NCBI GenBank assembly: GCA_018304425.1
Contig: JAGVWE010000006.1
Span: 67,175-131,174 of the forward strand
Origin: Candidatus Iainarchaeum sp.
GTDB taxonomy: Archaea; Iainarchaeota; Iainarchaeia; Iainarchaeales; UBA10219
Direction: 5' to 3'
DNA: 64,000 nt
In this document: piece by piece, positions 52,689-64,000 of the stretch
Layout of the letters: each line of letters starts with the position of its first letter
Numbering within the stretch: the first letter of the stretch is position 1
The notes under the pieces: model-generated
Databases searched by the model: none
What the model was told of the DNA's origin: nothing
What the model saw: the letters and a program-made list of their open reading frames with translations, nothing else
Translations under genes and position numbers: made by a program

Positions 52689-55600
52689 ATGAAACGGGCT
52701 ACCCGCACTGCGTTGGTCGTTGCCTGGCTGGCCCTGTTGGTGGCCGGGGCCTGGGCCGCGGCGCCCACGATTTCCGGCCTCTCCCCCGATGGAAGCACGA
52801 CCGTCACCAGCAACCAGCCCACCATCCAGTTCGAGGTCAGCGAGAACGGGGCAGGGGTAACGGACTATAACGTGTCCATTGACGGAACCAAGGTGAAGGG
52901 CAAAGGGGATACGGGAATAACCGTGCAGCCGGTGGATACGGACACCAACCGCATTTCGTTCAGCGTTTCAAGCGCCTTGTCCGACGCCACGCACACCCTC
53001 AAAATCGGGGCCACCAGCGCGGATTCACCGGCCCAATACGTTGAGACCGGGACCGTGAACTTCACGGTTTCCGCGACCACGGCTTCCAACGCCCCCACCA
53101 ACCCCCGCATCAGCGTGCCGCCGTTCACGCGGACCGTGAAGCCCAAGCTCCAGTTGAAGGCGGACGGCAGCCCGGCCAAGATGCGGTTCAGCTGCTCGCA
53201 GACTGGTCCATGGGACGCCAACCACTCGTATGCGACGAGCTACAGCGACTTCAACATCTTGGACCAGAACGTGGGTTGCTCGGCCAGTGAGGGCCTGCAT
53301 GCCATCTGGGTGCAGTACGCGTTCGCCGCCAGCAACTGGAGTGACGCCAACACGGCTTCCACTTTCTACGATGTTTCGAAGCCCTCGAAGCCCGGGAACC
53401 TCTCCGTGGCCATCCGCGACACCGATAATGCGGTCAACGTGAAGTGGGACGAGAGTTCGGACAGCTCGGGCAGCAAGCCCCGGTACAACGTGTACCGGTC
53501 CATGGACTTGAACTTCGTGGGCAAGGAACTCGTGTCCACGGGGCTGGCGGCCAACCAGTTCTTTGACAAGAAGGGGTTGAAGGACGGCACCACTTATTAT
53601 TACCGGGCCACGGCCGTGGACAGCGCGGGCAACGAGTCGGAGCCCAGCGACGCCAAGCAAATCGTGGCCAAGGTCATCATCACCGGGGACACGGAGAAGC
53701 CCGGGGACGGCGGCAAAGCCATTTCCGAGGGAGACCTCAAGATTGTCCTGGTGCGGGCCGACGGCAAGGAAACCCTGTCCGTGCGCAAGGAAAAGGTGAC
53801 GCTCAAGGGCTCGTTCGGCAAGAAGCTCATCAACGTGAATTTGCTGTTTAAACTGCCGGGCGGGAAGACCCTGGAATTGATTGACGCCTCCAAGCCCGCG
53901 GAATCCGATAACCTGGACGGGTTTTCAAAGGAAGTGGATGCCTCGGAGGCGAAGAGCGGCAAGGGCCAGATACTATTCAAGGCCAAGGACCCGGATACCG
54001 ACAAGCTGTTGTCCCGGGCCATTGAGTTCGACGTCGACACCGATGAACCGGTGGCGGACTGGATTAACCCGGAAAAGGAGAAGGCCTCGTTTGCCGGCAA
54101 GGTCTTGTTGAAGGTCAAGGCCAACGACAAGGGCTCGGGCCTCGAGAAGGCCGTGTTCTCGTACAAGGAGGCCAGGACGGGAAAGGCAGGGGAGCTGGGA
54201 ACGGTTACCAGGGACGACAACGGGTTTTACTCCCAGGAATGGAAGTTTGACGGCTACTATAACGGGGCCTACTCGGTTTCCGTGACCGTGTACGACAAGG
54301 CCGGCAATTCCGTGACCGAGTCGCTCAAGGAAGTCAACCTTTCGGGGGCCAAGAACCCGGACAAGGAAGTCACGGAAGCCAAGGTTGTCGAGGCCGAGGC
54401 CCGGCAAGCCGACATCGACAAGTTCGCGGACCGGCTCAAGCAGAAGAACGTGGTGTCCTCGAAGCTGACCAATGCCCGGGATTCCTTCACGGCGAAGATT
54501 GCGGAAGCCAAGAGCCTGCAAGCGGCCAAGAACTATGCCGAGGCCCAGAAGCGGGTCGCGGAGGCCCTGGCGATTGTCACGGGATTGCCAAACCTCATTG
54601 AGGTACGGGAGGCCCGGAAAGTCGATTACGTCCTCGACGCGAATGCGTTGGAGAAGGGCGTCAAGGAAGCCGGTTTGGACGAGAAACTGGTGCCCAAGGC
54701 GGTTGACTTAATCAAGAAGTCGAAAGCCCATCGCTCGCTGGAAGTGCTGGAAATCAAGGAGGGAAGCGATTCGACTTTCCAGGTGAACGTCGTCGTGTCG
54801 GTGTCGAACCCGGGCACGGAAGCGGTTTCGCTCAAAGTCATTGAAGTGATTCCCAAGGAGTTCGCGGCCAAGGCCAGTGACTTGCGCAGCCAAGCTGATT
54901 TCAAGGTGTTGAACGCCGACCCGTCCATCGAGTTCAGGGCCGAACTCGGGAAAGGCGCTTCCCAGGAGTTCGTGTACTCGCTGAGCAAGGCGTTGTCCAA
55001 GGAAGAGGCCCGCGTGTTCCTGGACGCGGAGCCCTTGAAGGCGTTCCCCGCGCCGCCCCTGGTCTTGGAGGCTAGCCAGGCAGTCGGCGAAGTCAAGCCC
55101 AAGGCAAGGATTGACTTGACGCCGGTCCTCGCCTTCCTCGCCGTGTTGGTGGTGGCAGGGCTTGCCTTCTTTTCCTGGAAGAAGTTCGGGGGCGAAGGCC
55201 TGGGCGGGGTGGGCGCAATGATGGCCGGCTTGTTGGAACAGGTTCAGGCCGGGTTGAAGGGAGCCATGCCAGGCAAGAAGAAAGCCGAAGGCCTTTCACG
55301 GCCGTCAGGCAAGCGCGTGGACTTCCTCGACGAAGGCGAGGGCGAAGGAGTCATCAGCTTCAAGAAGGCCCGGGAAGCCCGGGGCTTTGGCGGCAAACGC
55401 TATGAGCCCTTGTTCTTGGGCGGTGACGAGGACTCGGCGGCCAAGAAACCGGAGAGAAAACTGCATCCCCTGGAGCGGCTCATCGAAGAGCACCCGCGGC
55501 CGGCTCCCCCCAAGCACGTGTTCAGGGAACCCCTGCCGGTGCGCGAGCGAAGCGAGCGCAGGGAGCGAAGCGAGCCCCCGAAGGACTTCTTCGAGGGATT

Positions 55601-55697
55601 GAAGAAGCGATTCGAGCCCAAGCCCACAGAAGAAGCCGAGGAAAAGCCCGTGCCCCGCAAGAAGGCCGGCAGCAAGTGGGGATACGGCAGCGAGTGA
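52689..55697 (+). CDS. large secreted, C-terminally membrane-anchored surface protein (S-layer/adhesin-like, Ig/FN3-like beta domains) with ~180-aa charged cytoplasmic tail
   Basis: signal peptide MKRATRTALVVAWLALLVAGAWAA; multiple N-x-S/T sequons; TM LTPVLAFLAVLVVAGLAFF near C-terminus; Arg/Glu-rich tail. Confidence 0.6.
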   Translation: MKRATRTALVVAWLALLVAGAWAAAPTISGLSPDGSTTVTSNQPTIQFEVSENGAGVTDYNVSIDGTKVKGKGDTGITVQPVDTDTNRISFSVSSALSDATHTLKIGATSADSPAQYVETGTVNFTVSATTASNAPTNPRISVPPFTRTVKPKLQLKADGSPAKMRFSCSQTGPWDANHSYATSYSDFNILDQNVGCSASEGLHAIWVQYAFAASNWSDANTASTFYDVSKPSKPGNLSVAIRDTDNAVNVKWDESSDSSGSKPRYNVYRSMDLNFVGKELVSTGLAANQFFDKKGLKDGTTYYYRATAVDSAGNESEPSDAKQIVAKVIITGDTEKPGDGGKAISEGDLKIVLVRADGKETLSVRKEKVTLKGSFGKKLINVNLLFKLPGGKTLELIDASKPAESDNLDGFSKEVDASEAKSGKGQILFKAKDPDTDKLLSRAIEFDVDTDEPVADWINPEKEKASFAGKVLLKVKANDKGSGLEKAVFSYKEARTGKAGELGTVTRDDNGFYSQEWKFDGYYNGAYSVSVTVYDKAGNSVTESLKEVNLSGAKNPDKEVTEAKVVEAEARQADIDKFADRLKQKNVVSSKLTNARDSFTAKIAEAKSLQAAKNYAEAQKRVAEALAIVTGLPNLIEVREARKVDYVLDANALEKGVKEAGLDEKLVPKAVDLIKKSKAHRSLEVLEIKEGSDSTFQVNVVVSVSNPGTEAVSLKVIEVIPKEFAAKASDLRSQADFKVLNADPSIEFRAELGKGASQEFVYSLSKALSKEEARVFLDAEPLKAFPAPPLVLEASQAVGEVKPKARIDLTPVLAFLAVLVVAGLAFFSWKKFGGEGLGGVGAMMAGLLEQVQAGLKGAMPGKKKAEGLSRPSGKRVDFLDEGEGEGVISFKKAREARGFGGKRYEPLFLGGDEDSAAKKPERKLHPLERLIEEHPRPAPPKHVFREPLPVRERSERRERSEPPKDFFEGLKKRFEPKPTEEAEEKPVPRKKAGSKWGYGSE

Positions 55698-55740: not shown

Positions 55741-56160
55741 ATGGGATTGAAAAGCCCCTACTTGAACAGGCTCCACCGCGTGCTGAGTGCAGCCCACGCC
55801 GATTATTTGGTGGCGCCCTGGGACGCGAGCCGGGAACAGCGCCGGAATTTGCGGCGCCGGACGAGAATCGCCGCAAACGTGATGCTGGCCATGGGAGAAC
55901 TGTCGCCCGCCCAGCAACGAGCCGTGAACGCCGCCAGGGAACACTGGACTGCAAGCGGCTTTGACAGGGAACACAGGCTAAGCCTGGCTGACGCGGCGCT
56001 CCTGCGGGACGTGGCCGCACTCCCTTCCGTGACCCTGATCGCGTTGAAAAGGGGCCAGCCCTACGACCAGGTGGAGCGCAGGATTAGGCAGCTGATGGAA
56101 CGATACCAACTCACCTTGCTTTATTTTCATAGGGCGCTTATGGAACAGGGCAAAGGCTAG
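55741..56160 (+). CDS. hypothetical protein
   Basis: 139-aa ORF, no recognised motif. Confidence 0.3.
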   Translation: MGLKSPYLNRLHRVLSAAHADYLVAPWDASREQRRNLRRRTRIAANVMLAMGELSPAQQRAVNAAREHWTASGFDREHRLSLADAALLRDVAALPSVTLIALKRGQPYDQVERRIRQLMERYQLTLLYFHRALMEQGKG

Positions 56161-57023
56161 TAGTTTCCGCCCGTGTAGCTGATGTCGAAGCCCTTGTTGC
56201 CCAACCGATAGGCGACCATGCGTTTTTCGTGGGCGCAGCTCCGGAGTTTGAGGAGTTCCAAGGCGTTTTCGCGGCGCTTGTCGGTCTTCATGTTGTACAA
56301 GACCACGACGCCGTCGGCGAGGAACTCTTCCACGCCCGTGCGGGAATAGAGTTGGGGGTCCTGCTCGGTTTCGCCGATGACGAGGTTCACCGAGTTATTG
56401 TATTCAAGCGTTTCGAAGAGTTCGCGGAGGTACTTCCGGTAGTTTTCCTCGGCCTCGAAGCCGATGGACAAAGCGGAAAGCGAGTCGATGGCGATGCGGT
56501 CGGGCACGAAGGGCAGCTCCATCTTCCGGAACTTGATGCGCAGCGAACCCGTTTTTTCGGCGAGCCTTCCCTCCACGCTGCGCGCAATCTTGGTGGGGTC
56601 GAATTTCACGATGGCCACCATGCCCTGCCGCTCGAGGGCGTCAAAGTCCCAGCCATAGTTCTTGACCATGTGCTTCTTGACTTTGTGGGGCTCTTCCTCA
56701 AAGGAAATGAAAATCCCTTTCTCCCCAGCGAGGGCGCCGTGGTAAATGGATTGCAGGCAAAAAGTGGTCTTTCCCGTGCCGCAGCCGCCCGTAACCAGGG
56801 TCGTGGAACCGCGTTCGAGGCCGCCGTCCTTGATGAGCTTGTCGAAGCTGCTGACGCGGGTGGGCAGGGTTTCAATGGGTGCCCTGCTGACTTCCTTGGG
56901 TTTCAGGCGGAGGATGTCTTCCTCGGCCGCTTCTCCCGGGGCTTCCTCGTCATCCCCGAAGGAAATCACGCGGCTCTTGCGCCACTTGCTGAGCTTTTCC
57001 TCGAGTTTGCTCTCTTCGTCCAT
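56157..57023 (-). CDS. KaiC-like / RecA-superfamily ATPase (single domain)
   Basis: TTLVTGGCGTGKTTFCLQ Walker A, IAIDSLSAL Walker B region; acidic N-terminal extension; own TATA box (plus-strand 57051-57066 tgctatataaataaaa). Confidence 0.75.
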   Translation of the reverse strand: MDEESKLEEKLSKWRKSRVISFGDDEEAPGEAAEEDILRLKPKEVSRAPIETLPTRVSSFDKLIKDGGLERGSTTLVTGGCGTGKTTFCLQSIYHGALAGEKGIFISFEEEPHKVKKHMVKNYGWDFDALERQGMVAIVKFDPTKIARSVEGRLAEKTGSLRIKFRKMELPFVPDRIAIDSLSALSIGFEAEENYRKYLRELFETLEYNNSVNLVIGETEQDPQLYSRTGVEEFLADGVVVLYNMKTDKRRENALELLKLRSCAHEKRMVAYRLGNKGFDISYTGGNY

Positions 57024-57118
57024 TCCAGTGCCTCACCCGTACTCCATTCCCTTGCTATATAAATAAAAGCCTTGCCGTATGGAAAGCCCCTGCCTGGCCC
57101 AAACGGCTTCCAACGGCC

Positions 57119-58351
57119 TTATAGGGCTCCTTCTTCGCCTCCCTGGCTCTTCAAGATCTTGTCGATTTCGATGAGGCGGGCCTCGGCTTCGCCCAAGCGC
57201 TTCTTGAAGGTGTTCTTGTCGATGACCATGCGGTCAAAGTAGTCCGCCTGGATCTTGCGGATGCCTTCCCGCAACCGCCCGCGCTCGGCCAACAAGGACT
57301 TGCGGTCAAGCTGGCCACGCACCTTGGAATAACCCGTGTAAGCCGCGGCCCCCAGGAGGACCAACGCGAAGACGATGATCAAGCCATTGTTTTTGAGGAA
57401 CAAGGCCGTTCGGTCCACGGTAATCACGAGGTCAATCACCTTTTTCCCCTCGTTTCCGGCGGAGTCCGCGACCGTCAAGGCAAAGGACAGGGAACCGATG
57501 TGTTTTTCCTCGGCCTCGAATTTGCCGGCAAAAGTGCTTTCCACGCCGGACACGGGCTGCAACTCCAGCTTGGAGCCATTGAATTCAAGCCACGCCTTCC
57601 CCCCCGTCAAGGGCTTGCCGCTGGGGTACGAGGCCTTCACTTTGAAGGGGATCTCGGTCTCCAAGTCAAAGTTGGAGATGCTGGGCTCCAGGACTTCCAG
57701 CTTGAGGTCGGCACGGTCAATGCCCACCACCAAGGTGTTGGCGCCCCCCAAAGACTTTTCCCCGGTTTTTTCGGCCAGCACGTGCAGGAACCAGTTCCCG
57801 CCCTGGGCATCAAAGGGCACCAGATAGTCAGCGGAATACACGCCCAAACCGGTTTCCTCCAGGGGGCGGGGCTCGCCGGACACGTCGAAGAACACCACGT
57901 TGGCGCCGCTGACGGGTTCCCCTGACTCGGAGAGCTTCACGCTAATCGACAACGACTCGGTCTTATAGTGCTTGACCGGTGCCGGGCTCACGAAGGTAAC
58001 CAGGTAATAATCGCTGTCCGCCGTGGGCTTGACCTCGGTTTCGGCTTCAGCCGAGGCCTGGCCCTCCACGGCCTTCACCGTCCACTGACCGGAGGGCACC
58101 AGGAAAGAAATGCCTTGGAACAAGGAGTACTTGCCTTCCGCGTTGCACGGCACCGCCTGCGCAAACGGCTTGGCCTTGCCCTTTTCCGTCCACGCCGAAA
58201 CTTCAACGGTTTCATTGGCCGTGCACTGGCCGGAAACCGCCATTTCCTGGCCCTTGAAATAGGTCTGCTTGTCCAATTCCACGGTCAACGCCTGGACCCC
58301 CACGAAGGCCAGGCAAAAAACCAGCAAAAACAGGGCCCGCCCGGAATTCAT
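57119..58351 (-). CDS. secreted membrane-anchored beta-rich surface protein with cytoplasmic coiled-coil tail
   Basis: signal peptide, TM LIIVFALVLLGAAAYTGY, tail ...DKNTFKKRLGEAEARLIEIDKILKS. Confidence 0.5.
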   Translation of the reverse strand: MNSGRALFLLVFCLAFVGVQALTVELDKQTYFKGQEMAVSGQCTANETVEVSAWTEKGKAKPFAQAVPCNAEGKYSLFQGISFLVPSGQWTVKAVEGQASAEAETEVKPTADSDYYLVTFVSPAPVKHYKTESLSISVKLSESGEPVSGANVVFFDVSGEPRPLEETGLGVYSADYLVPFDAQGGNWFLHVLAEKTGEKSLGGANTLVVGIDRADLKLEVLEPSISNFDLETEIPFKVKASYPSGKPLTGGKAWLEFNGSKLELQPVSGVESTFAGKFEAEEKHIGSLSFALTVADSAGNEGKKVIDLVITVDRTALFLKNNGLIIVFALVLLGAAAYTGYSKVRGQLDRKSLLAERGRLREGIRKIQADYFDRMVIDKNTFKKRLGEAEARLIEIDKILKSQGGEEGAL

Positions 58352-60090
58352 TTGGCTGCCTCCAGTTGCTGTTCCAGCTTGTCCAATTCCTCGCCATACT
58401 TTTCCGTGAGCCGCGTGAACTCGGACTTGGGCAGCGTGCCCTCGTCATAGTACTTGTTGTTTATCTCCTCGATCATGGCCTTGAGCTGCTGCCTGCGCAT
58501 CCCCATCTTTTCCTTTGACTTCTTGGAAGAAAACTGGAAGAAGCCATAGCCTCCTCCCCCGACCACCAAGACCAACACCACCAACACCATCAACCAGTTC
58601 TTCTGCAAGACGAAGGCAAGCGATTCCCCGGTGACCTCGATGCTTACCTCCTTTTCCACGGCATTGCCATGCTGGTCCCTGACCACGAACTTGACCGGCC
58701 GGTTGCCCTGGTCCTTTTCCTGCAAGTAATACGTGCCGCCAAAAATCCCGGTCTCCAACGCCGTGAGCGGGGCCTCCGCGCCGCTGACCACGAGCTTGAC
58801 CTCGGCTTCCTCGACCTTGGAGCCATCCGGGTAGGTCAACCGGAGCTTGGCCACCAGGGCATCCCCGATGCGGAAATGCACGTTCACGGGTTCCAGGACT
58901 TCCACGACTATCTTACCCGATTCGATGACCACCAGCAACCGGGTCATGCCCTCGGCCGGCAGCCCCTCCAGGGCCCCCGCAGCCGAGAACTCGAGTTGCT
59001 GGCTGCCCGCCGGGAACTCATAACCTATCTCCAGGTCAACCGCGTACACCCCGCTGCCTTGGTCCTCCAAGTCAAGGACCCTTCCGTCGGGCACCTTGAC
59101 CTTGACGCTCGCGCCCGAAACCTTGTTGCCTTCCTCGTCCACCACCGTCACGCTGACCGGCTTCTTTTCCCCGCGCTTGAGCACCGTGTTGTTGGGAATG
59201 GAGGGGGAAAGCTTCAACTCGGTCTTGGTGCGCGGCGCCTCCACGAGCACGTCCTTGGAGTAACTCAGTTCGTTGCCAGCGGAGTCCTTTCCCTGCAACT
59301 GCACCCTCCACTTGCCCACGGGGTCAATGGTGGAAAGATGGTAGGAAGCGCTGAACGCGCCGCTGGAGTCCGCGGAAACGGTTTCACTGTACTTGGTTTC
59401 GCTGCCATAGAAGACCTTGGCCTCGACCTGGATGGGCGCGGGCTCGGACTTCTTCAAGGCCAGGCCACTCAAGTCAATGGTGTCACCCAGCTGGTAACGG
59501 TCCTTGACCTTCACGTCCGCGGAAATCTTGGGCTCGACCACGAACTCGAAGTCCCGGGTTATCTCGAGTTTCCGGAAGCGGGCCACGAACTGGGCCGGGT
59601 ACTTGCCGGGCGGCATGGAGGCCTCGACCGGGAACCGGTTGGCGTACACGTTGTCGAAATTCGAGCCGTCCTCGTGGGCTCCGTCATTGTACAAGTAGAA
59701 CTGCGGCCCCGGCAAGCCGGTAACCTCCAACTCCGCGCCGACCACGGGAAAGCCGCTGGAGCTCACGGTTATCTTCAGCAGCCCCTTTTCCCCCAGGTAA
59801 TAGGTTTCGCCTTCGGCGGGGTTCAAGACCTCGAACTCGAGGGTCGTCGGAGGACAGTCGGCCGGGCAGGTGCCATAGCTCTCCGCATAGCCCTCGCTGA
59901 CCTCGCACAAGTCGTTGCGGCAGCAGTTGGGAACAACGACTTTCTCGCACTTGTTTTCCTTGACCTCGTAGACCATGCAGTACTCGCCGGCCACGGGGCC
60001 CTCGCAAAAGGTTTCCTGGGCGGACGCGAACGCCGCAAACGAGGACAAGGCCAGGACTGCAAGAAAGCCGAAATGGATTGCTTTTTTCAT
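58348..60090 (-). CDS. secreted Cys-rich N-domain, beta-rich surface protein with TM anchor and cytoplasmic coiled-coil tail
   Basis: signal peptide MKKAIHFGFLAVLALSSFAAFASA; TM WLMVLVVLVLVVGGGGYGFF; tail ...KSEFTRLTEKYGEELDKLEQQLEAAK similar to tail of 57119 gene. Confidence 0.5.
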   Translation of the reverse strand: MKKAIHFGFLAVLALSSFAAFASAQETFCEGPVAGEYCMVYEVKENKCEKVVVPNCCRNDLCEVSEGYAESYGTCPADCPPTTLEFEVLNPAEGETYYLGEKGLLKITVSSSGFPVVGAELEVTGLPGPQFYLYNDGAHEDGSNFDNVYANRFPVEASMPPGKYPAQFVARFRKLEITRDFEFVVEPKISADVKVKDRYQLGDTIDLSGLALKKSEPAPIQVEAKVFYGSETKYSETVSADSSGAFSASYHLSTIDPVGKWRVQLQGKDSAGNELSYSKDVLVEAPRTKTELKLSPSIPNNTVLKRGEKKPVSVTVVDEEGNKVSGASVKVKVPDGRVLDLEDQGSGVYAVDLEIGYEFPAGSQQLEFSAAGALEGLPAEGMTRLLVVIESGKIVVEVLEPVNVHFRIGDALVAKLRLTYPDGSKVEEAEVKLVVSGAEAPLTALETGIFGGTYYLQEKDQGNRPVKFVVRDQHGNAVEKEVSIEVTGESLAFVLQKNWLMVLVVLVLVVGGGGYGFFQFSSKKSKEKMGMRRQQLKAMIEEINNKYYDEGTLPKSEFTRLTEKYGEELDKLEQQLEAAK

Positions 60091-60117
60091 GGGGGTTCAA
60101 CTCTCATGGAAACCAAT

Positions 60118-60471
60118 TCACTTCCAGGGAAGCGGGGAAACCGCGTCCCCTGCCTTCACCATGGGAAAAAACCGGTTCAACGCCTTCGGCACGCTTACCT
60201 TTCCAATGCGGACGAGGAAGGTCAGGATGCCCAGCAACACCAGGAACAAGGACAAGCCCAGCACGGTCTCCGCGTTCACGGGCATGCGCAGCAACTGGTT
60301 GCCCAACAGCAACGCCAGGGGCAGGAAGGTAAGGCTGAACACCACCGAGAACACCCACCGCTCGAGCCTCGAAATCTCGCCGCGCCGGGGAAAAAACCCC
60401 AGCACCAGGAAGTACCCCGGAACCACCAACAGGAAGCCAAAAACCAATGCGCCGCCCAACAACTTCAGCAT
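60118..60471 (-). CDS. small 3-4 TM membrane protein
   Basis: 117 aa hydrophobic; 27 nt upstream of 58348 gene in same orientation. Confidence 0.4.
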   Translation of the reverse strand: MLKLLGGALVFGFLLVVPGYFLVLGFFPRRGEISRLERWVFSVVFSLTFLPLALLLGNQLLRMPVNAETVLGLSLFLVLLGILTFLVRIGKVSVPKALNRFFPMVKAGDAVSPLPWK

Positions 60472-60507
60472 GCCAAACCACTAACATATACCTGATTTAT
60501 ATTTAAA

Positions 60508-63041: not shown

Positions 63042-63680
63042 TCAGGGCTTTTTGTAAGCCGACCAGTTGAAGGGAATGACTGCGCCCTGGGCCACGAGTT
63101 TGGCGTCCGGGAACAACCGCCGCAGGTCTTCGGCCGTCAGCAGGTCGGTGTCGAGGAACACTTCGCTTCGATGCGCGTCCAAGCCAAAGGCTTTCGCGCA
63201 CCAGCGTTGCATGCCCTTGGGGAGGAAGTGAAAGAACGGCAAATGGTAGTGCACGTCCAGGGGAAACCACTTGTTGGGGGTCGACACCCAGTAGCTTTTC
63301 CCGACCCTTCGGACTTCGTCGGCGAAGGCCTGCCAGTTTTCTTTGCCCACGTGTTCCAGCGTGGCATTCGAGTACACGATGTCGAGGGCCTGGTCCTTGA
63401 AGGGCAGCCTGCAACCGTTTCCCACGATGACGTGCGGCACTTCCCTCCCGTTCCAGGTCCTGCGGCCCTGCCACTCCAAGAGGTTCAAGACCAGGAGGCG
63501 GTCCTTGAAGGGAAACCATTCAAAGAAGTCCTGGCCCGCGCCCACGTCCAGCACGCGCTTGCCGGGGGTCGGCTGGAGTTCACGGGAAAACAAGGCAAAC
63601 CGCTCGGTCCGCGCCCGGTCCGAGTAACCGGACTGGATGCCTTTGACGAAGCGGCTGAAGAACGCCAGCATGAAAACCAT
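63042..63680 (-). CDS. methyltransferase-type-11-domain protein
   Basis: VLDVGAGQ motif I, ...LEHV... ; ORF table extends to 63887 over the tRNA, so start trimmed to internal Met. Confidence 0.55.
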   Translation of the reverse strand: MVFMLAFFSRFVKGIQSGYSDRARTERFALFSRELQPTPGKRVLDVGAGQDFFEWFPFKDRLLVLNLLEWQGRRTWNGREVPHVIVGNGCRLPFKDQALDIVYSNATLEHVGKENWQAFADEVRRVGKSYWVSTPNKWFPLDVHYHLPFFHFLPKGMQRWCAKAFGLDAHRSEVFLDTDLLTAEDLRRLFPDAKLVAQGAVIPFNWSAYKKP

Positions 63681-63838
63681 CCGCTGCCCTTGCCGGCACG
63701 CGAACCATTTATGCCCCGTTGAGCCCCCCACAGGGGCGAAACAGGGCACGCCCGCGCGCATCCGGCGCATGTCGTGCCATGCAACGCATGGCACGGTTTT
63801 TCCCCAGGCTTTTTGCCGAAGGCAAAAAGGCTGGCGGA

Positions 63839-63911
63839 TAGCCCCAAGGAGATTCGAACTCCTGTCTGCAGGGTCAGAGCCTGCCATCCTTGGCCACTAG
63901 ACGATGGGGCT
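63839..63911 (-). tRNA. tRNA-Gln (anticodon CUG), no encoded CCA
   Basis: manual fold: acceptor AGCCCCA/TGGGGCT, anticodon stem GCAGG/CCTGC with loop CTCTGAC, T-arm AGGAG-TTCGAAT-CTCCT, discriminator A. Confidence 0.7.
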
Positions 63912-64000
63912 AAATGAAGCGACAAAAAAACGGGTCTGACACCTAGTCTGGCTGGCGAATGCTTTTAAGGCTTATTGGGGGGCAAAGCTCAGCACATTGC

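Follow-up and report, generated by a model that had tools for sequence, protein, structure and literature searches.

Introduction

Makarova, Galperin and Koonin reportedly proposed, in mBio in 2017, that the KaiC-like ATPases of archaea act as hubs of signal transduction. The class is loosely defined; its members are single-domain KaiC-family ATPases encoded in conserved neighbourhoods with putative input and output components. PMC5847659 cites KaiC-family ATPases as proposed archaeal signalling hubs and describes hub neighbourhoods that include two-component proteins and inactivated KaiC domains (‘iKaiC’). Here we describe a gene group of this general kind in a 64,000-nucleotide (nt) stretch of Candidatus Iainarchaeum sp. 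(assembly GCA_018304425.1, contig JAGVWE010000006.1, positions 67,175 to 131,174 of the forward strand), referred to below in its entirety as the window. A KaiC-like ATPase of 288 amino acids (aa) is encoded there beside two membrane-anchored surface proteins of 580 aa (A-type) and 410 aa (B-type) with related cytoplasmic tails, and we propose, with a probability of about 0.5, that tail proteins and ATPase form a two-part transmembrane signalling module. A first-pass annotation of the sequence had already treated the surface proteins and the ATPase as one functional unit. Gene linkage and the identity of the ATPase uphold that core, but not the inclusion of a 117-aa membrane protein, the attribution of the same tail to a 1002-aa neighbour or the single operon that went with it.

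The locus resembles the hub class in the conserved linkage of its ATPase to one family of tail proteins and in its histidine kinase, REC and degenerate-KaiC neighbours, and departs from it in its partner, a defined family of type I membrane proteins whose C-terminal helix-loop-helix tail matches no Pfam model. It is this partner family and its tail motif that appear to be new here; the idea of KaiC hubs with variable partners has been published before. In the archaellum motor, the KaiC-like protein ArlH binds the single-pass protein ArlX, which has a helical cytoplasmic domain, and ArlF and ArlG are beta-sandwich proteins that anchor the machine to the envelope (PMC8978795); the likeness extends to T2SSE and T2SSF genes, which lie beside the module in three loci. 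However, ArlH does not hydrolyse ATP, whereas the module ATPase keeps its catalytic pair of glutamates (EE) and leaves the ArlH model unmatched (19 against 215 bits). In addition, a large ectodomain and a cytoplasmic tail are here carried on one type I polypeptide, and most loci are without type IV pilus (T4P) genes. Closest in both sequence and fold is the CI half of cyanobacterial KaiC, with which the ATPase shares a GVEEF segment and, in several lineages, an association with histidine kinases and response regulators; unlike KaiC, it has a single domain, no CII phosphorylation sites and partners that would be membrane receptors.

Chemoreceptors (with CheA/CheW) and alpha/beta integrins offer a functional analogy only, with no homology. 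Like them, the module combines exchangeable ectodomains with a conserved membrane-proximal or cytoplasmic part, and the A/B proteins recall integrins in being paired paralogous type I subunits with beta-sandwich ‘legs’ and short tails that would serve a cytoplasmic partner. The tail here is nevertheless a hairpin of about 60 aa rather than a long four-helix bundle, and the partner is a RecA-fold ATPase. A predicted secretion or membrane-remodelling system built on arCOG01314 and arCOG02884 (Makarova et al. 2015, PMC5898192) also links Ig-like archaeal surface proteins to an ATPase, and arCOG02884 is the DUF1616 (pfam07760) family, which the 117-aa neighbour matches weakly. It was excluded because its components differ: the ATPase is of the MoxR/GvpN AAA+ type and is accompanied by vWA proteins and DUF4350, none of which is present here, and DUF1616 proteins carry two to four N-terminal transmembrane (TM) helices, not a C-terminal anchor with a tail.

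Linkage of tail genes and ATPase

Loci were gathered by homolog look-ups, a scan of species-representative genomes and a scan of metagenome contigs, mostly anchored on KaiC, and all of their open reading frames (ORFs) were scored with hidden Markov models (HMMs) of the ATPase, of the A/B family and of the tail alone. The genome scan yielded at least two close orthologs and the metagenome scan, which used a tighter alignment, added more. KaiC anchoring biases the distance statistics and leaves the contrast between clades unaffected. Only loci flanked by at least 2.5 kb on either side entered the linkage count, and KaiC proteins were classed by their bit score against the ortholog HMM as orthologous (≥ 385), mid-distance (200–385) or distant (< 200). 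Tail-motif genes were present at 15/15 orthologous, 5/13 mid-distance and 0/23 distant KaiC loci (Fisher p = 6.5e-11, orthologous against distant). All 53 tail ORFs found in 1.15 Mb of loci lie at most 4 kb from a KaiC gene, 29 of them within 71 nt. The earlier proposal that surface proteins and ATPase belong together is thus borne out at every well-flanked orthologous locus, and related pairs occur in other phyla.

The arrangement of the genes is far from fixed. An A/B pair stands upstream of the ATPase on the same strand in loci L007–L010 and L042–L045; in L011 and L044 it is downstream, in L012 it occupies the opposite strand, and in L064 the ATPase gene lies between its two members. L115 contains two complete copies of the module. 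That the linkage survives such varied gene order indicates that it has been maintained and not merely inherited. When the KaiC cores were placed in a neighbour-joining tree, every tail-linked ATPase fell into one clade, composed of a DPANN subclade with tail genes in every informative locus and a mixed sister group from other phyla. In Hadarchaeum (L027) and a member of the Thermoplasmatota (L026), tail proteins of 435–1136 aa adjoin KaiCs only 32–38% identical to the query. Outside the DPANN ortholog clade as a whole, the TM helix and tail are borne by different ectodomains in Hadarchaeota, Thermoplasmatota, Methanosarcinales and a Woesearchaeota metagenome-assembled genome (MAG).

These data also bear on an alternative, namely that the synteny is inherited without functional coupling and that the ATPase has an unrelated housekeeping role. 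The ATPase gene in the window has its own TATA box and a 95-nt spacer before it, its product is far more conserved (51–72% identity among the matches listed) than the A/B proteins (20–39%), and many orthologous loci come from related DPANN lineages, all of which would suit such an explanation. It is nonetheless very improbable. The linkage is kept through at least four gene arrangements; it is seen again in other phyla, with distant KaiCs (32–43% identity) and with ectodomains of unrelated kinds; no other KaiC clade has it; and in L115 tail genes and ATPase have been duplicated together.

Within the tail-linked KaiC clade there is also a subclade from Thermoplasmatales and Thermoplasmatota MAGs (L021, L023, L024, L025 and L028) without tail genes. 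In these loci the KaiC gene is followed, at a distance of about 400 nt, by that of a second, divergent paralog, and the segment equivalent to the KaiC B-loop is replaced (…LRMKFGS…); the partner may have been swapped in this lineage.

Surface proteins and the tail family

The two large proteins have the architecture first attributed to them, with an N-terminal signal-like hydrophobic segment, a beta-rich ectodomain, a single C-terminal TM helix and a charged tail of 70 or 76 aa (Table 1). They are paralogs, 25% identical over 361 residues (E 2e-24), and the alignment spans the last three ectodomain modules, the TM helix and the tail. The similarity of the tails noted in the first-pass annotation therefore reflects homology beyond composition, as a tail-only HMM also indicates: run over the whole window, it matched two ORFs only, those of the 410-aa (E 2.7e-20) and 580-aa (E 1.2e-18) proteins. 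The tails were described there as coiled coils; they are indeed charged, but an AlphaFold (AF2) model of the 410-aa protein predicts a helix-loop-helix hairpin instead (helices 350–372 and 379–404, at a predicted local distance difference test (pLDDT) score of about 80).

The tail consensus, LQxxY[FY]xKGxI[SD][KR]xx[YF]...L...[ILV]...L, was found in 146/151 family representatives, at the extreme C-terminus (median 4 residues after the motif in the 146). Its first tyrosine (Y371 in the 410-aa and Y547 in the 580-aa protein) is invariant in an 18-sequence alignment, and the motif is conserved in MAGs of Diapherotrites, Woesearchaeota, Hadarchaeota, Thermoplasmatota and Methanosarcinales. The tails match no Pfam model. 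The motif resembles SHOCT; that model gave no match in ten tails scanned at E ≤ 10, although HMMER filters drop most weak matches to very short models. Word-indexed searches with the 410-aa protein and the family alignment returned just 3 proteins, and it was exhaustive HMMER searching that revealed the family, with 1029 clusters at 50% identity at E ≤ 1e-3 and 306 at E ≤ 1e-30. In the literature searched, the coverage of which excluded the 2017 KaiC-hub paper, neither the family nor its motif is described.

Throughout the family the core is C-terminal, beneath N-terminal extensions that bring the total length to about 370–2183 aa, commonly near 400 and 600. In L020, three proteins around two KaiC genes carry the same TM helix and tail under helical, non-Ig ectodomains. 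A conserved TM helix and tail under an exchangeable ectodomain is a layout usual for receptor families. Two tandem tails follow one TM helix in a 3057-aa protein (L022, a Methanosarcinales MAG) and in a 1296-aa protein (L020), which would be consistent with tails acting in pairs. Of the 21 adjacent A/B gene pairs on the same strand, 18 overlap, by 4–43 nt, implying coupled expression and making a heteromer probable, and orthologs of the 410-aa protein adjoin the ATPase gene in related loci.

The ectodomains are less distinctive. In the 580-aa protein, Pfam recognised MG2 (38.8 bits, cut-off 32.8) and Invasin_D3/Ig-like domains. For the 410-aa protein, the model rests on a shallow alignment and has a mean pLDDT of 69.7; it comprises three beta-sandwich domains, the TM helix and the tail hairpin, and its ectodomain matches in Foldseek the MG-domain arrays of complement C3/C5, alpha-2-macroglobulin (A2M) and TEP1, as well as adhesin repeats. 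As modelled, this MG/Ig-type fold is generic for surface proteins. The thioester, bait-region and CUB domains of true A2M-family proteins have no Pfam match in the 410- or 580-aa protein, and kinship to the A2M/complement proteins holds at the level of the MG domain only. The Cys-rich N-terminal domain of the A-type protein occurs also in a third surface protein, without a tail motif, encoded beside the module in L008 (3982–6057), L009 (3148–4650), L010 (3265–4695) and L044 (14411–15988).

The module could, alternatively, work from the inside outwards, with A and B as an S-layer-like coat or as attachment adhesins, and the ATPase acting on their tails to drive or gate assembly, clustering or conformation, in a manner closer to the activation of integrins through their cytoplasmic tails than to sensing. 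We regard this as possible, if rather unlikely. The MG/Ig strings are nearest to the MG arrays of complement and A2M and to bacterial adhesin repeats, members reach 2183–3057 aa, and the paired, overlapping genes suggest a heteromer of fixed proportion. Furthermore, an extra anchored surface protein is adjacent in 6/11 ortholog loci, the module is near-universal in genome-reduced DPANN relatives and mostly without signalling neighbours there, and the window region is rich in genes for glycosylation and surface biogenesis. However, it is the tail that is conserved, while the ectodomain is exchangeable (helical and non-Ig in L020); outside DPANN, the module has two-component and degenerate-KaiC genes around it; and the KaiC family is generally known for slow switches and regulators, not assembly motors (for ArlH, see PMC8978795). 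Nor is there similarity to known S-layer families: the SlaB model reached 15.6 bits against a cut-off of 700, over the N-terminal 70 residues only, and was rejected.

The KaiC-like ATPase

The ATPase is a single-domain KaiC/RecA-like protein, as the first-pass annotation held, and matches Pfam PF06745 over aa 54–281 with 168.3 bits (cut-off 26.6, E 2e-49). It contains a Walker A motif (GGCGTGKT, 79–86), catalytic glutamates (FEEE, 108–111), a Walker B motif (IDSLS, 179–183) and the GVEEF segment (230–234). Residues of Walker A and Walker B and the catalytic glutamate pair are invariant in 28 homologs, and judged by these motifs the enzyme looks catalytically intact. Of PDB entries, it matches the CI half of KaiC best, with 125 bits where CII reaches 57, and the CI-type GVEEF occupies the place of the CII phosphorylation sites. 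The AF2 model (pLDDT 82.7) has a confident core, with residues 15–42 below 50, and its top Foldseek matches are PH0186 and KaiC-CI. The N-terminal extension first reported is present; it has about 50 aa and is variable and predicted to be disordered, and its acidity is only mild, with 15 D/E against 10 K/R in the first 52 residues. A Candidatus Diapherotrites MAG has an identical annotated protein. Among the best 120 matches listed, relatives from beyond the ATPase's own species group are 51–72% identical to it, a level of similarity common in DPANN, and the named sources among them are Diapherotrites, Micrarchaeota, Woesearchaeota and an unclassified archaeon.

Several better-known identities were rejected. 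On the ArlH model NF052589 the protein scored 19.3 bits (cut-off 215) and on the FlaH model PRK06067 26.8 (194), and ArlH structures were not among its top 50 fold matches. NCBIfam models of RadB gave 24.1 against 278 and 22.4 against 172 bits, and those of RadA 20.3 against 259 and 15.3 against 361. With scores of 15–27 bits where 172–361 are needed, it is not a canonical RadA, RadB or ArlH/FlaH, in agreement with the earlier reading. Circadian KaiC (NF006799/TIGR02655) was rejected at 139.7 against 408 and 108.9 against 546 bits, the protein being one 288-aa domain and not CI-CII, and the CII autophosphorylation sites (S431/T432 in S. elongatus) are Glu-Glu at the equivalent positions. No KaiA or KaiB Pfam family was found among the window neighbours scanned or the called genes of related loci. 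Membership of a known anti-phage defence system was discarded after a PADLOC search, in which the ATPase had only a P-loop-limited match to mad8 (23 bits, aa 69–129) and the surface proteins had none.

A clade-specific segment of the ATPase, aa 142–154 (Table 1), aligns with the B-loop region of KaiC-CI. In cyanobacteria this loop is the docking place of KaiB and SasA. P143, A147, R148, V150 and E151 are invariant among orthologs. KaiCs associated with tails retain the segment, whereas other clades have it replaced or shortened, and we infer that it is a candidate docking surface for the tails.

Neighbouring signalling and pilus genes

Clustering and Pfam scans of the flanking genes revealed recurrent neighbours of the module: PAS/HAMP/dCache histidine kinases, REC proteins and small degenerate KaiC-like proteins (DUF7504/DUF7090). 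These occur in L015, L020, L022, L026, L027 and L045, in L012 (a degenerate-KaiC domain only) and in L046, a locus reached through a 2183-aa tail protein without a KaiC anchor; in L012, L015 and L026 some of them lie directly between the KaiC and tail genes. At the six module loci outside the DPANN ortholog clade, signalling genes were found in 6/6 and pilus genes in 0/6. It is because of these histidine kinase, REC and degenerate-KaiC genes that we prefer signalling over assembly, and the choice left by the first-pass annotation between outside-in signalling and ATP-driven assembly of a surface structure accordingly leans towards the former.

The picture within DPANN is different. Among the 17 DPANN ortholog loci of at least 9 kb, two-component genes occur in one, and three (L008, L009 and L115) have a T2SSE gene and two T2SSF genes followed by a PAC2 gene. 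The module might thus be an accessory of a T4P-like machine, in which the ATPase takes the role of ArlH under the T2SSE ATPase, the tails serve as a cytoplasmic scaffold in the manner of ArlX and the beta-sandwich ectodomains are ArlF/ArlG-like stators anchored to the envelope. The T2SSE and T2SSF genes directly follow the module in L008 and L009 and, in L115, lie between its two copies, all on one strand, and ArlH is known to bind ArlI and ArlX (PMC8978795). Moreover, a strong association of KaiC families with archaeal T4P loci is reported (PMC4858521), as are DPANN pilus clusters, those of Nanohaloarchaeota, with two kaiC copies (PMC9563170); tailed partners are not mentioned in the passages concerned. 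We nonetheless consider such a role unlikely. T4P genes flank only 3/17 DPANN ortholog loci and 0/6 module loci outside the clade, the three share the trailing PAC2 gene and so may reflect one inherited arrangement, and T2SSE and T2SSF usually lie beside other, more distant KaiC clades without tail genes (L034, L071, L079, L080 and L094). The ATPase itself, at 19 bits on the ArlH model (cut-off 215), retains its catalytic glutamates. Among the ORFs scanned in the 64-kb window there was no T2SSE or T2SSF, archaellins not having been specifically searched for.

Three details of these loci may be recorded. The PAC2 gene that closes the T2SSE/T2SSF cluster encodes a proteasome assembly chaperone-like protein (L008 13665–14405, L009 13599–14369, L115 19283–20041). 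In L115, a KaiC of the tail-linked clade (P0030, 18007–19194) has an added CTP-dependent riboflavin-kinase-like domain (PF01982), and in L009 the module is followed, at a distance of a few kb, by a separate gene of the MarR/riboflavin kinase (RFK)-like type and two DMRL synthase genes.

A model of the module

If the module does signal, its receptor part would be one or, usually, two paralogous type I proteins with a fast-evolving, exchangeable ectodomain and a conserved C-terminal tail, and its transducer would be the CI-type single-domain KaiC-like ATPase, presumably a hexamer as are other KaiC-family proteins. A and B would be made in fixed proportion from their overlapping genes and would pair in the membrane, and their tails would dock on the ATPase ring, possibly on segment 142–154 at the position of the KaiB/SasA-binding B-loop of KaiC-CI. 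Events at the ectodomain, such as the binding of a ligand, contact with a cell surface or clustering, could then shift the nucleotide state or the assembly of the ATPase, whose output outside DPANN might run through the histidine kinase, response regulator and degenerate-KaiC partners, and in DPANN possibly to a T4P-like machine or other targets. For the holding of a KaiC-like protein by a single-pass membrane protein there is a precedent in the archaellum, in the interaction of ArlH with ArlX (PMC8978795).

A number of observations weigh against this proposal. Contact between the tails and the ATPase is something that we infer, as are the direction and the output of signalling. Eight of the 13 mid-distance KaiC loci have no tail genes nearby, and the neighbour-joining tree that unites the tail-linked ATPases carries no support values. 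L046, which was reached from a tail protein, has no KaiC in its 14.6 kb, the tail gene starting 42 nt from the end of the locus. At 13/17 DPANN ortholog loci there is no nearby histidine kinase, REC, degenerate-KaiC or T2SSE/T2SSF gene that could suggest a downstream signalling partner. Strings of Ig/MG domains and giant members of up to 3057 aa are more typical of adhesins and surface-layer proteins than of ligand sensors, and the ATPase gene in the window seems to have its own promoter.

A bolder scheme, which we think improbable, would make A and B an integrin-like adhesion heterodimer whose paired tails clamp a KaiC-like hexamer, coupling the state of the surface (for example, contact with the host cell in DPANN symbionts) and an ATP-driven switch in both directions, so as to gate a T4P-like machine or two-component pathways. 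If it were true, the tail motif would be the first defined receptor docking module for the hypothesised archaeal KaiC signalling network.

Transcription units and other genes of the window

The four minus-strand ORFs of the locus, encoding proteins of 117, 580, 410 and 288 aa, were confirmed at the positions and with the spacing first claimed (Table 1), starts being taken as the most upstream possible. The 117-aa and 580-aa genes are 27 nt apart, the 580-aa gene shares 4 nt (ATGA) with the 410-aa gene, and a 95-nt spacer separates the latter from the ATPase gene. The archaeal TATA consensus TTTAWATA has 5 exact matches in the 64 kb, against 0.5 expected. Two of these are on the minus strand, one before the ATPase gene, where the first-pass annotation had placed a TATA box, and one before the 117-aa gene; the 27-nt gap before the 580-aa gene has no match. 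From these elements, the ATPase gene probably has its own promoter and the other match is likely the promoter of a 117-580-410 transcription unit, in which the 117-aa gene is probably co-transcribed with the A/B pair in this genome. Two transcription units, the second consisting of the ATPase gene alone, are therefore the likeliest layout, and of the four-gene operon first envisaged the tight packing of 117-580-410 stands, while its extension to the ATPase probably does not. The 20-kb region around the ATPase gene recurs in several metagenome assemblies.

Table 1. Positions of the features discussed, in window coordinates.
Feature	Position	Strand	Details
Tandem paralog, 562 aa	48851-50539	+	
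Tandem paralog, 511 aa	50583-52118	+	
1002-aa anchored surface protein	52689-55697	+	Big_7, fn3, DUF7743; signal, TM, tail
139-aa ORF	55741-56160	+	Converges on ATPase gene; 4-nt overlap with its 3' end
KaiC-like ATPase, single-domain CI-type, 288 aa	56157-57023	-	Pfam PF06745
Clade-specific ATPase segment DPTKIARSVEGRL	56562-56600	-	aa 142-154; aligns to KaiC-CI B-loop region
TATA-box consensus TTTATATA	57056-57063	-	~35 nt upstream of ATPase ATG
B-type tail protein, 410 aa	57119-58351	-	Signal peptide, three beta-sandwich domains, TM about aa 316-343, tail
Tail of 410-aa protein	57122-57322	-	aa 344-410; motif core IQADYFDRMVIDKNTF aa 367-382 (nt 57206-57253)
A-type tail protein, 580 aa	58348-60090	-	Signal peptide, Cys-rich N-terminal domain (aa ~27-85), MG2/Ig-like domains, TM helix about aa 492-510, tail
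Tail of 580-aa protein	58351-58560	-	aa 511-580; motif core INNKYYDEGTLPKSEF aa 543-558 (nt 58417-58464)
Cys-rich domain of A-type protein	59836-60018	-	aa ~25-85; also in a third, non-tail surface protein
117-aa multi-TM protein	60118-60471	-	Weak partial DUF1616 match
TATA-box consensus TTTAAATA	60500-60507	-	~30 nt upstream of 117-aa gene
Longest methyltransferase ORF	63042-63887	-	5' end overlapped by tRNA-Gln
tRNA-Gln (CTG)	63836-63912	-	

The small membrane protein that the first-pass annotation counted as part of the system is better seen as a synteny neighbour, and conservation rules it out as a component of the module. Among the loci surveyed, its sole homolog belongs to L008, where 3.7 kb separate it from the module, and in both L008 and the window its gene is divergent from a geranylgeranyl reductase (GGR) gene. 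The match of the 117-aa protein to DUF1616 is sub-threshold (29.4 bits, cut-off 31.6) and covers profile positions 25–117 of 307, the TM part only; it was not accepted as a full-length DUF1616 protein, which has about 300 aa and joins an N-terminal TM region to an extracellular Ig-like domain.

The 1002-aa protein, for which the same tail design had been claimed, is alike in layout but has a different tail, of 174 aa, rich in Pro, Arg and Glu and ending in KWGYG (KWGYGSE), with no tail-HMM match and no motif. A homolog at the same position in L007 (8877–12617, minus strand, 1246 aa) ends in KWGYGQ, and this ending may be a second, different conserved C-terminal signal. The 1002-aa protein is one instance of the third anchored surface protein without a tail motif that was found beside the module in 6 of the 11 ortholog loci. 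Such proteins share pieces of ectodomain with the A-type protein in L008, L009, L010 and L044, and may be loosely associated partners. The 139-aa ORF was called in the source contigs and has weak matches only (an antitoxin N-terminal domain and MIGRI). It is confined to near-identical contigs of this species (L001–L006) and absent from all other loci surveyed, and is not counted as part of the module.

Elsewhere in the window, the 562- and 511-aa tandem paralogs (30% identity, E 6e-31) belong to no Pfam or NCBIfam family, with a faint match of winged helix-turn-helix (wHTH) type in one of them. The overlap of the tRNA-Gln gene with the longest methyltransferase ORF indicates that the real start of the latter is further downstream (the called product has 212–242 aa). 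About 2 kb beyond the methyltransferase on L001–L003, past two genes and probably outside the window, there is a TnpB/Cas12f-like gene. Many surface-glycan and envelope biogenesis genes lie at about 7000–40000, encoding DUF2079, a GT2 glycosyltransferase, a radical SAM/SPASM protein, a polysaccharide synthase/flippase, two UDP-glucose/GDP-mannose dehydrogenases and a PMT-like mannosyltransferase.

Conclusions

To our knowledge, KaiC-like ATPases are among the most abundant predicted regulators of archaea, and their inputs are almost entirely unknown. The tail proteins are a concrete candidate for such an input, as a family of some 1000 clusters with a hairpin of about 60 residues and an invariant tyrosine, tied genetically to one KaiC clade. 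With them, the hub hypothesis becomes testable by direct binding and mutagenesis of a tail peptide and the ATPase. DPANN archaea, whose genomes are minimal, live attached to other cells. Given this lifestyle and the presence of the module in every well-flanked locus of the DPANN KaiC clade, it may belong to the core apparatus by which these organisms sense, or attach to, surfaces.

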